From: Escherichia coli 042
Lineage (GTDB): Bacteria > Pseudomonadota > Gammaproteobacteria > Enterobacterales > Enterobacteriaceae
NCBI RefSeq assembly: GCF_000027125.1
Contig: NC_017626.1
Length of the DNA: 64,000 nt
Direction: 5' to 3' (one strand)
Position numbers and translations under genes: made by a program. The notes under the pieces are model-generated. The model had not been told where the DNA came from. It did not search any database and worked only from the letters and a program-made list of their open reading frames with translations. Below are positions 27,308-27,700 of this stretch, piece after piece (position 1 is the first letter of the stretch; each line of letters opens with the position of its first letter).

Positions 27308-27700
27308 CTTGCCGAATGTAGGCCGGATAAGGCGTTTACGCCGCATCCGGCAATCAACGCCTGATGCGTCGCTGTCGCGTCTTATCAGGCCTACAGCCGT
27401 TGCCGAATGTAGGCCGGGTAAGGCGTTATACGCCGCATCCGGCAATCAACGCCTGATGCGTCGCTGTCGCGTCTTATCAGGCCTACAGCCGTTGCCGAAT
27501 GTAGGCCGGATAAGGCGTTTACGCCGCATCCGGCAATCAATGCCTGATGCGTCGCTGTCGCGTCTATCAGGCCTACAGCCGTTGCCGAATGTAGGCCGGA
27601 TAAGGCGTTTACGCCGCATCCGGCAATTAATGCCTGATGCGACGCTGTCGCGTCTTATCAGGCCTACAAACCGTTACCGACTCGCATCCGGCAATTGTGG
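27308..27700. repeat. REP/BIME cluster: about four tandem copies of a roughly 90-bp unit between acs and yjcH
   Basis: Repeated gccgaatgtaggccggataaggcgtttacgccgcatccggcaatcaacgcctgatgcgtcgctgtcgcgtcttatcaggcctacagccgtt units with small variants; REP palindromes gccggatgcggcg / cgccgcatccggc. Confidence 0.85.

Follow-up and report, generated by a model that had tools for sequence, protein, structure and literature searches.

Tandem BIME-2 arrays, their hairpins, their binding of gyrase and the variation of their copy number among strains have been described since the 1990s. A BIME-2 element is defined as a z2 and a y REP separated by a short linker and repeated in multiple tandem copies, the number of which varies between strains (Ton-Hoang et al., 2012, PMC3333891). 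REP325 is a published Y/Z2 array (Qian et al., 2015, PMC4550694) with six BIME-2 units between the co-transcribed genes yjdM and yjdN of K-12, and it has been characterised experimentally as a dual element, an mRNA stabiliser and a partly Rho-dependent attenuator (Harris et al., 2026, bioRxiv 10.64898/2026.03.23.713779). In that study, deletion of REP325 caused yjdM to fall and yjdN to rise, such that the yjdM/yjdN mRNA ratio dropped from about 35 to about 1, and the REP325 RNA itself appeared as a ladder of truncated, hairpin-containing species. Dependence on Rho, as judged with bicyclomycin, was seen with the full-length array only and was undetectable with two to four hairpins, and the effects of REPs were described as context-dependent. 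The nucleoid compaction ascribed to naRNA4, and with it the HU-naRNA4 model of the nucleoid, was not reproduced (Harris et al., 2026). A related precedent is the malE-malF type of REP stabiliser where, according to Newbury et al. (1987) and Khemici and Carpousis (2004) as cited in PMC6061677, intercistronic hairpins can block 3′→5′ exonucleases and give rise to differential expression of the cistrons.

A four-unit BIME-2 array between acs and yjcH

The window analysed here is a 64-kb stretch of the genome of Escherichia coli 042, and it contains only two families of direct repeats of 60 nt or more. One of these is a tandem array which lies wholly outside genes, within the 472-bp spacer (27230-27701) that separates acs from yjcH (Table 1). 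Tandem Repeats Finder describes it with a period of 92, 4.1 copies, 95% matches, 1% indels and a score of 670, while a repeat search returns four in-register copies of a 91-92 bp unit at spacings of 92, 91 and 90 bp. In 100 shuffles that preserve dinucleotides, the expected number of matches to a REP-type pattern is 0.00. An initial annotation had proposed four tandem BIME/REP units of about 90 bp at 27308-27700, within the transcription unit of the co-directional genes acs, yjcH and actP. This description proved right in its coordinates, unit length, copy number and genomic setting, and it can be made more specific, because each unit consists of a Y and a Z2 REP and is therefore a BIME-2.

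The palindromes themselves were located with a Python regex scan. There are eight, of 34-36 nt, each ending in GGCCTAC, which corresponds to the length (about 34-37 nt) and GTAG/CTAC tail of REP palindromes. They follow the order Y(-), Z2(+) four times over, which is the alternation of inverted Y and Z2 (rather than Z1) characteristic of this class, and on alignment the Z units differ from the published Z2 of REP325 at just two positions in the loop. The Y and Z2 of each unit stand head-to-head over a 7-nt linker (AATCAAC, AATCAAT or AATTAAT) in all four units; this is the short S linker, as opposed to the long, IHF-binding L linker of BIME-1. Neighbouring units are joined tail-to-tail through an invariant 14-nt linker, AGCCGTTGCCGAAT. 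With its tandem, strain-variable copies and its extragenic site, the array shows every feature by which BIME-2 elements are recognised at the level of sequence. We are thus in almost no doubt that the repeat is a four-unit BIME-2 array, in which eight REP palindromes form four tandem Y/Z2 pairs.

Table 1. Positions in the window of the acs-yjcH array, its flanking genes and other structured elements.
Feature	Position	Strand	Remarks
actP, acetate/glycolate:cation symporter	25269-26918	-	Annotation; overlaps the yjcH stop codon
yjcH, DUF485 membrane protein	26915-27229	-	Annotation; first gene downstream of the array
Non-repeat spacer core	27236-27290	-	Small hairpin, A-rich stretch, yjcH Shine-Dalgarno CCUCUGGAGA
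Core hairpin	27273-27286		
BIME-2 array, four Y-Z2 units	27309-27680	.	Tandem Repeats Finder, repeat search, REP scan
Y REP, unit 1 (yjcH-proximal)	27318-27351	-	Regex scan
Z2 REP, unit 1	27359-27394	+	Regex scan; Z2 call by alignment to published REP325 Z2
Y REP, unit 2	27409-27443	-	Regex scan; variant with 1-nt loop insertion and T>C change
Z2 REP, unit 2	27451-27486	+	Regex scan
Y REP, unit 3	27501-27534	-	Regex scan
Z2 REP, unit 3	27542-27576	+	Regex scan; 1-nt deletion
Y REP, unit 4 (acs-proximal)	27591-27624	-	Regex scan
Z2 REP, unit 4	27632-27667	+	Regex scan; GCGACGC variant, as in the single K-12 unit
Truncated Y-like remnant	27677-27694	-	TTGCCGGATGCGAGTCGG on the mRNA strand; starts 8 nt past the acs stop codon; K-12 has a remnant too
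acs, acetyl-CoA synthetase	27702-29660	-	Annotation; upstream gene of the operon, with the array in its 3′ UTR
alr-tyrB spacer (REP318 of K-12), lone REP	8884-8917	+	Degenerate Y REP, tail GGCCAAT
sraL (RyjA), Hfq-binding sRNA	19943-20083	-	Rfam; beside soxS/soxR
gltP-yjcO array (REP321 of K-12)	38123-38385		BIME-2 type, period 113 bp
fdhF selenocysteine insertion sequence	40851-40905	-	Rfam
yjdM-yjdN spacer (REP325 locus)	60979-61137		159 bp, single Y-Z2 unit
REPs of the yjdM-yjdN spacer	61040-61076, 61090-61123		Rfam naRNA4, 87.5 bits, - strand

Comparison with described elements places the array squarely in the BIME-2 family of the Gilson/Bachellier classification. It shares with that family the inverted Y and Z2, the short head-to-head linker, tandem amplification, an extragenic site and a strain-variable number of copies, and we find no essential difference, since the 7-nt and 14-nt linkers are locus-specific, as is usual for BIME-2. 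The likeness to REP325 (the source of naRNA1-6) extends to context, both being tandem BIME-2 arrays between co-directional, co-transcribed genes, with near-identical Y and Z2 and with every unit matching the naRNA4 model of Rfam (RF02564). The two arrays differ in period (91-92 bp at acs-yjcH against 100 bp), in linkers (7 and 14 nt against 13 and about 23 nt) and in the number of units (four here against six in K-12 REP325). They also differ in orientation, in that the acs-yjcH array is inverted relative to transcription: the acs mRNA reads Z2 then Y, whereas the REP325 naRNA reads Y then Z2 and has its naRNA4 matches on the transcribed strand. Elements of the malE-malF type are likewise intercistronic REP hairpins in a polycistronic mRNA, but comprise two or three REPs compared with the eight of the acs array.

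Gimenez et al. (2003) reportedly describe co-transcription of acs with yjcG (actP). Because it lies in the acs 3′ UTR, inside the acs-yjcH-actP transcription unit, the array is transcribed. No intrinsic terminator (a GC-rich hairpin followed by a U-tract) was found on the minus strand between 26800 and 28000, and no promoter-like sites were found in the acs-yjcH spacer. The first complete REP begins 35 nt past the acs stop codon, and only the truncated Y remnant is closer, so that control of translation by a REP within 15 nt of a stop codon, as reportedly described by Liang et al. (2015), was set aside as an explanation.

Copy number and occupancy of the acs-yjcH spacer

Variation among strains was surveyed in two systematic samples of 60 drawn from 5,416 complete E. 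coli genomes, so the frequencies given here are estimates from samples. The query consisted of the unique flanks only, and the span between them in each genome therefore gives the length of the array. Copy number does vary, as the initial annotation had suggested might be found on comparing strains, and alleles with 0.5, 1, 2, 3, 4 and 5 units all occur at this site. A single REP pair is carried by about 80% of the sampled genomes, as the canonical one-unit allele (78/120) or a one-pair variant (17/120), while alleles with two units (6/120, about 5%), three units (6/120, about 5%) and four units (4/120, about 3%) are much rarer. A further seven of the 120 have a single Y REP, with or without an ERIC element, and in two the acs-yjcH locus is disrupted.

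MG1655 has one Y-Z2 unit in a 199-bp spacer, compared with 472 bp here, and the difference amounts to three units. No REP annotation is listed in the RefSeq record of MG1655 that was used. The K-12 element occupies the same site between the same flanks and shares the Y, the Z2 and the truncated Y remnant beside the acs stop codon; it differs in that units 1-3 of the window carry a GCGTCGC variant of Z2 which is absent from K-12. The array of the window is, then, an expanded allele of the single BIME of K-12 at the same site. Since E. albertii has a one-unit allele, a BIME was present at this site before E. coli arose.

The segment from 26900 to 28000, which comprises the array and its flanks, is 100% identical in E. 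coli 118UI (a urine isolate from Mexico) and in further genomes. Among the 60 genomes listed whose flanks are 100% identical to those of the window, one of which is labelled ST69, four units are present in 54, three in four and five in one. The four-unit allele is no artefact of assembly, being present in at least 54 independent complete genomes. The array is stably inherited within a lineage, with only occasional change. On inspection of the sequences, the five-unit allele proves to differ from the four-unit one by a second copy of unit 1, and the three-unit allele of the same lineage by the loss of unit 2, from which it follows that the array changes by whole units. Each gain or loss is a single step of 91-92 bp, for which unequal recombination or replication slippage between units is the likely cause; strand transfer mediated by TnpA(REP) has been published as an alternative.

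Outside E. coli, acs lies directly upstream of yjcH and in the same orientation in all 80 genomes of other Enterobacterales that we compared, with a spacer of 69-302 bp. What is common to these spacers is the core next to yjcH: the hairpin, the A-rich tract and the yjcH Shine-Dalgarno sequence are kept across the Enterobacterales whichever repeat sits upstream. The stem-loop of the core reads CTCCC-TTAT-GGGAG in E. coli and CCCTCTCCC...GGGAGAGGG in other genera, and this conserved region may act in the processing of yjcH-actP or in the control of its translation. The inserts upstream of the core differ by genus, with REPs of the E. coli type in Escherichia and other palindromes elsewhere. In Salmonella, Citrobacter, Kosakonia and Buttiauxella the spacer is filled by an element which, from its consensus, we take to be ERIC (IRU). 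An ERIC element together with a single Y REP is also found in about 5% of the sampled E. coli genomes, for example NZ_CP048934 (231-412). The acs 3′ UTR appears to be a recurrent landing site, or hotspot, for several unrelated small structured repeats.

Two individual genomes show larger rearrangements at the locus. In strain SK0189 (NZ_AP046539, 4330-5790), IS1397 interrupts the loop of the first Y REP between acs and yjcH, and its other end adjoins the right half of a different REP beside phnD; because the ends of the insertion sequence meet different REPs, about 30 kb (acs through phnE) has been lost between two REP sites. IS1397 is reported to target the loops of REPs, a specificity that the SK0189 insertion fits. 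In strain UPEC85 (NZ_CM137000), the match to the flank query is limited to its 147 actP-proximal bases, and a yjcH fragment is annotated beside yjdM, which suggests a second large deletion, between the acs-yjcH and yjdM regions.

Possible roles of the array in the operon

In mRNA sense the spacer is predicted to fold to -234 kcal/mol (z = -10.6 against shuffles), compared with -83.4 kcal/mol (z = -6.0) for the K-12 spacer, so the stacked mRNA hairpins envisaged in the initial annotation are borne out by folding. Taken alone, the Z2 and Y hairpins are predicted at -20.5 and -21.3 kcal/mol, respectively, and individual REPs range from about -18 to -21 kcal/mol. A Z2:Y pair can instead form one long imperfect duplex with a predicted energy of -49.7 kcal/mol. 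A rut-type excess of C over G is absent from the mRNA-sense spacer, where C/G is 0.8-1.3. Structurally, the locus resembles the stabiliser/attenuator class, with stable predicted hairpins between co-directional genes of one transcription unit.

These features suggest a model in which stable REP hairpins, each of about -20 kcal/mol, line up along the acs-yjcH mRNA and would shield its acs segment by stopping 3′→5′ exonucleases. Being free of ribosomes, the 472-nt stretch would at the same time lower read-through into yjcH-actP, partly through Rho. Both effects would raise the ratio of acs to permease mRNA, and more so with more units. On balance, by analogy with REP325, we lean slightly towards such a cis-acting role, in which the array would shield acs from 3′ exonucleases, limit read-through into yjcH-actP and grow stronger as units are added. 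The decoupling of acs from the downstream genes put forward in the initial annotation would match what experiments showed for REP325. Weighing against a large effect are the nearly equal read densities of acs and actP in one-unit K-12 (see below), the context dependence of REP effects and the lack of Rho dependence with two to four hairpins at REP325, the orientation opposite to that of REP325, and the missing C-over-G skew. On the DNA, the array would be expected to act as a transcription-independent site of gyrase binding and cleavage, as in other BIME-2 elements. As a whole, an expanded BIME-2 allele that probably acts as a stabiliser and attenuator, and that would also be bound by gyrase, is the best explanation of the locus, and we consider it reasonably probable.

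A serious rival is that the array is neutral, selfish repeat DNA, the gain and loss of units being drift in a tolerant spacer with no meaningful effect on expression. The range of occupants is consistent with this, as the spacer in E. coli accepts a lone Y REP (132 bp), between one and five BIMEs, a Y REP together with an ERIC element, or IS1397, and the spacers of other genera (69-302 bp) hold unrelated palindromes or ERIC elements. Copy number tracks lineage, as the predominance of four units among the listed genomes with identical flanks illustrates, with no recurrent selection. Furthermore, read densities over acs and actP are about equal in K-12, which has one unit: in exponential phase, when acs is poorly expressed, the DESeq2 base means are 154 for acs and 121 for actP, and the resulting ratio of about 1.07 per nucleotide means that no polarity between acs and actP is visible in that strain. 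However, the comparable REP325 array shifts the expression of its neighbours roughly 10-fold, there is a genome-wide expression bias at tandem gene pairs separated by REPs, and RNases and Rho are unlikely to be indifferent to eight hairpins of -20 kcal/mol in an untranslated gap of 472 nt. A purely neutral array is in our view rather unlikely.

It is also conceivable that the main role of the array is exerted on DNA, as a strong gyrase or topological site which absorbs positive supercoils downstream of the highly inducible acs gene; this would be compatible with a role in RNA. Gyrase cleaves BIME-2 elements in vivo, where they are over-represented among cleavage sites and Y REPs are preferred, and in Topo-seq data the BIME-2 signal rises when transcription is blocked, which marks these elements as strong, transcription-independent sites (PMC6379681). 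The array contains four Y REPs, and more units would here mean more gyrase. Against this, cleavage is seen in only a subset of BIME-2 elements (PMC6379681), gyrase binding at an individual BIME is not known to produce a phenotype, and the HU/naRNA4 nucleoid model for REP325 failed to reproduce. We regard a primarily topological function as doubtful.

The Rfam matches could be taken to mean that the units are naRNA4-like sRNA genes (RF02564) giving rise to HU-binding, nucleoid-associated RNAs. All four units do exceed the gathering threshold of 59.5 bits on the plus strand, with scores of 67.5-84.6, but these matches are antisense to the operon, and the transcribed minus strand scores a sub-threshold 42.7-51.8 bits. 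There is no promoter-like site facing in the plus-strand direction in the spacer, the model detects any Y-linker-Z2 unit, including the gltP-yjcO BIMEs and the yjdM-yjdN unit, and the role in nucleoid compaction was not reproduced in 2026. We therefore reject this highly improbable reading; although the matches are genuine, any Y-Z2 unit would give them, and here they fall on the strand that is not transcribed. A CRISPR-like repeat-spacer array, a likeness that had rightly been called superficial, has nothing beyond the regular palindromic periodicity of about 91 bp in its favour and is ruled out by the sequence, since the same 7-nt and 14-nt linkers recur in every unit in place of unique spacers, the repeats are canonical REPs of which about 20 or more per genome occur elsewhere, and the annotation of the 20 kb on each side lists housekeeping genes only and no cas genes.

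REP loci elsewhere in the window and the meaning of copy number

The window contains further REP loci, listed with their positions in Table 1 together with the Rfam matches to sraL and to the fdhF element. A second array of the BIME-2 type lies between gltP and yjcO and consists of five REPs in the order Z2-Y-Z2-Y-Z2 with linkers of about 36 nt; two of its units match naRNA4 on the plus strand. The REP325 locus itself is also within the window, and its single unit compares with six units in a spacer of 657 bp in MG1655. This model array for studies of the nucleoid and of operons is therefore strongly polymorphic. With four units at acs-yjcH and one at the REP325 locus, the present genome is the reverse of K-12, which has one and six, respectively.

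Elements of this kind are already known, as are their structure, the variation in their copy number and the functions proposed for them, and the site is occupied by REPs in K-12 too. The value of the locus is that it offers a natural allelic series, with 0.5, 1, 2, 3, 4 or 5 units in one operon of otherwise near-identical genomes. Such a series could be used to test quantitatively the recent claim that REP arrays both stabilise and attenuate in a length-dependent manner. Because the genes concerned serve acetate uptake and activation (actP and acs), the read-out would be easy as well as physiologically and biotechnologically relevant.

Returning to the stabiliser/attenuator model, one may tentatively go a step further and propose that the copy number of intra-operonic BIME-2 elements is a heritable, lineage-specific dial on operon stoichiometry, although we think this broader idea unlikely at present. 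If it were true, the four-unit lineage would make relatively more Acs per ActP than K-12, and more YjdN per YjdM, with consequences for the scavenging of acetate.
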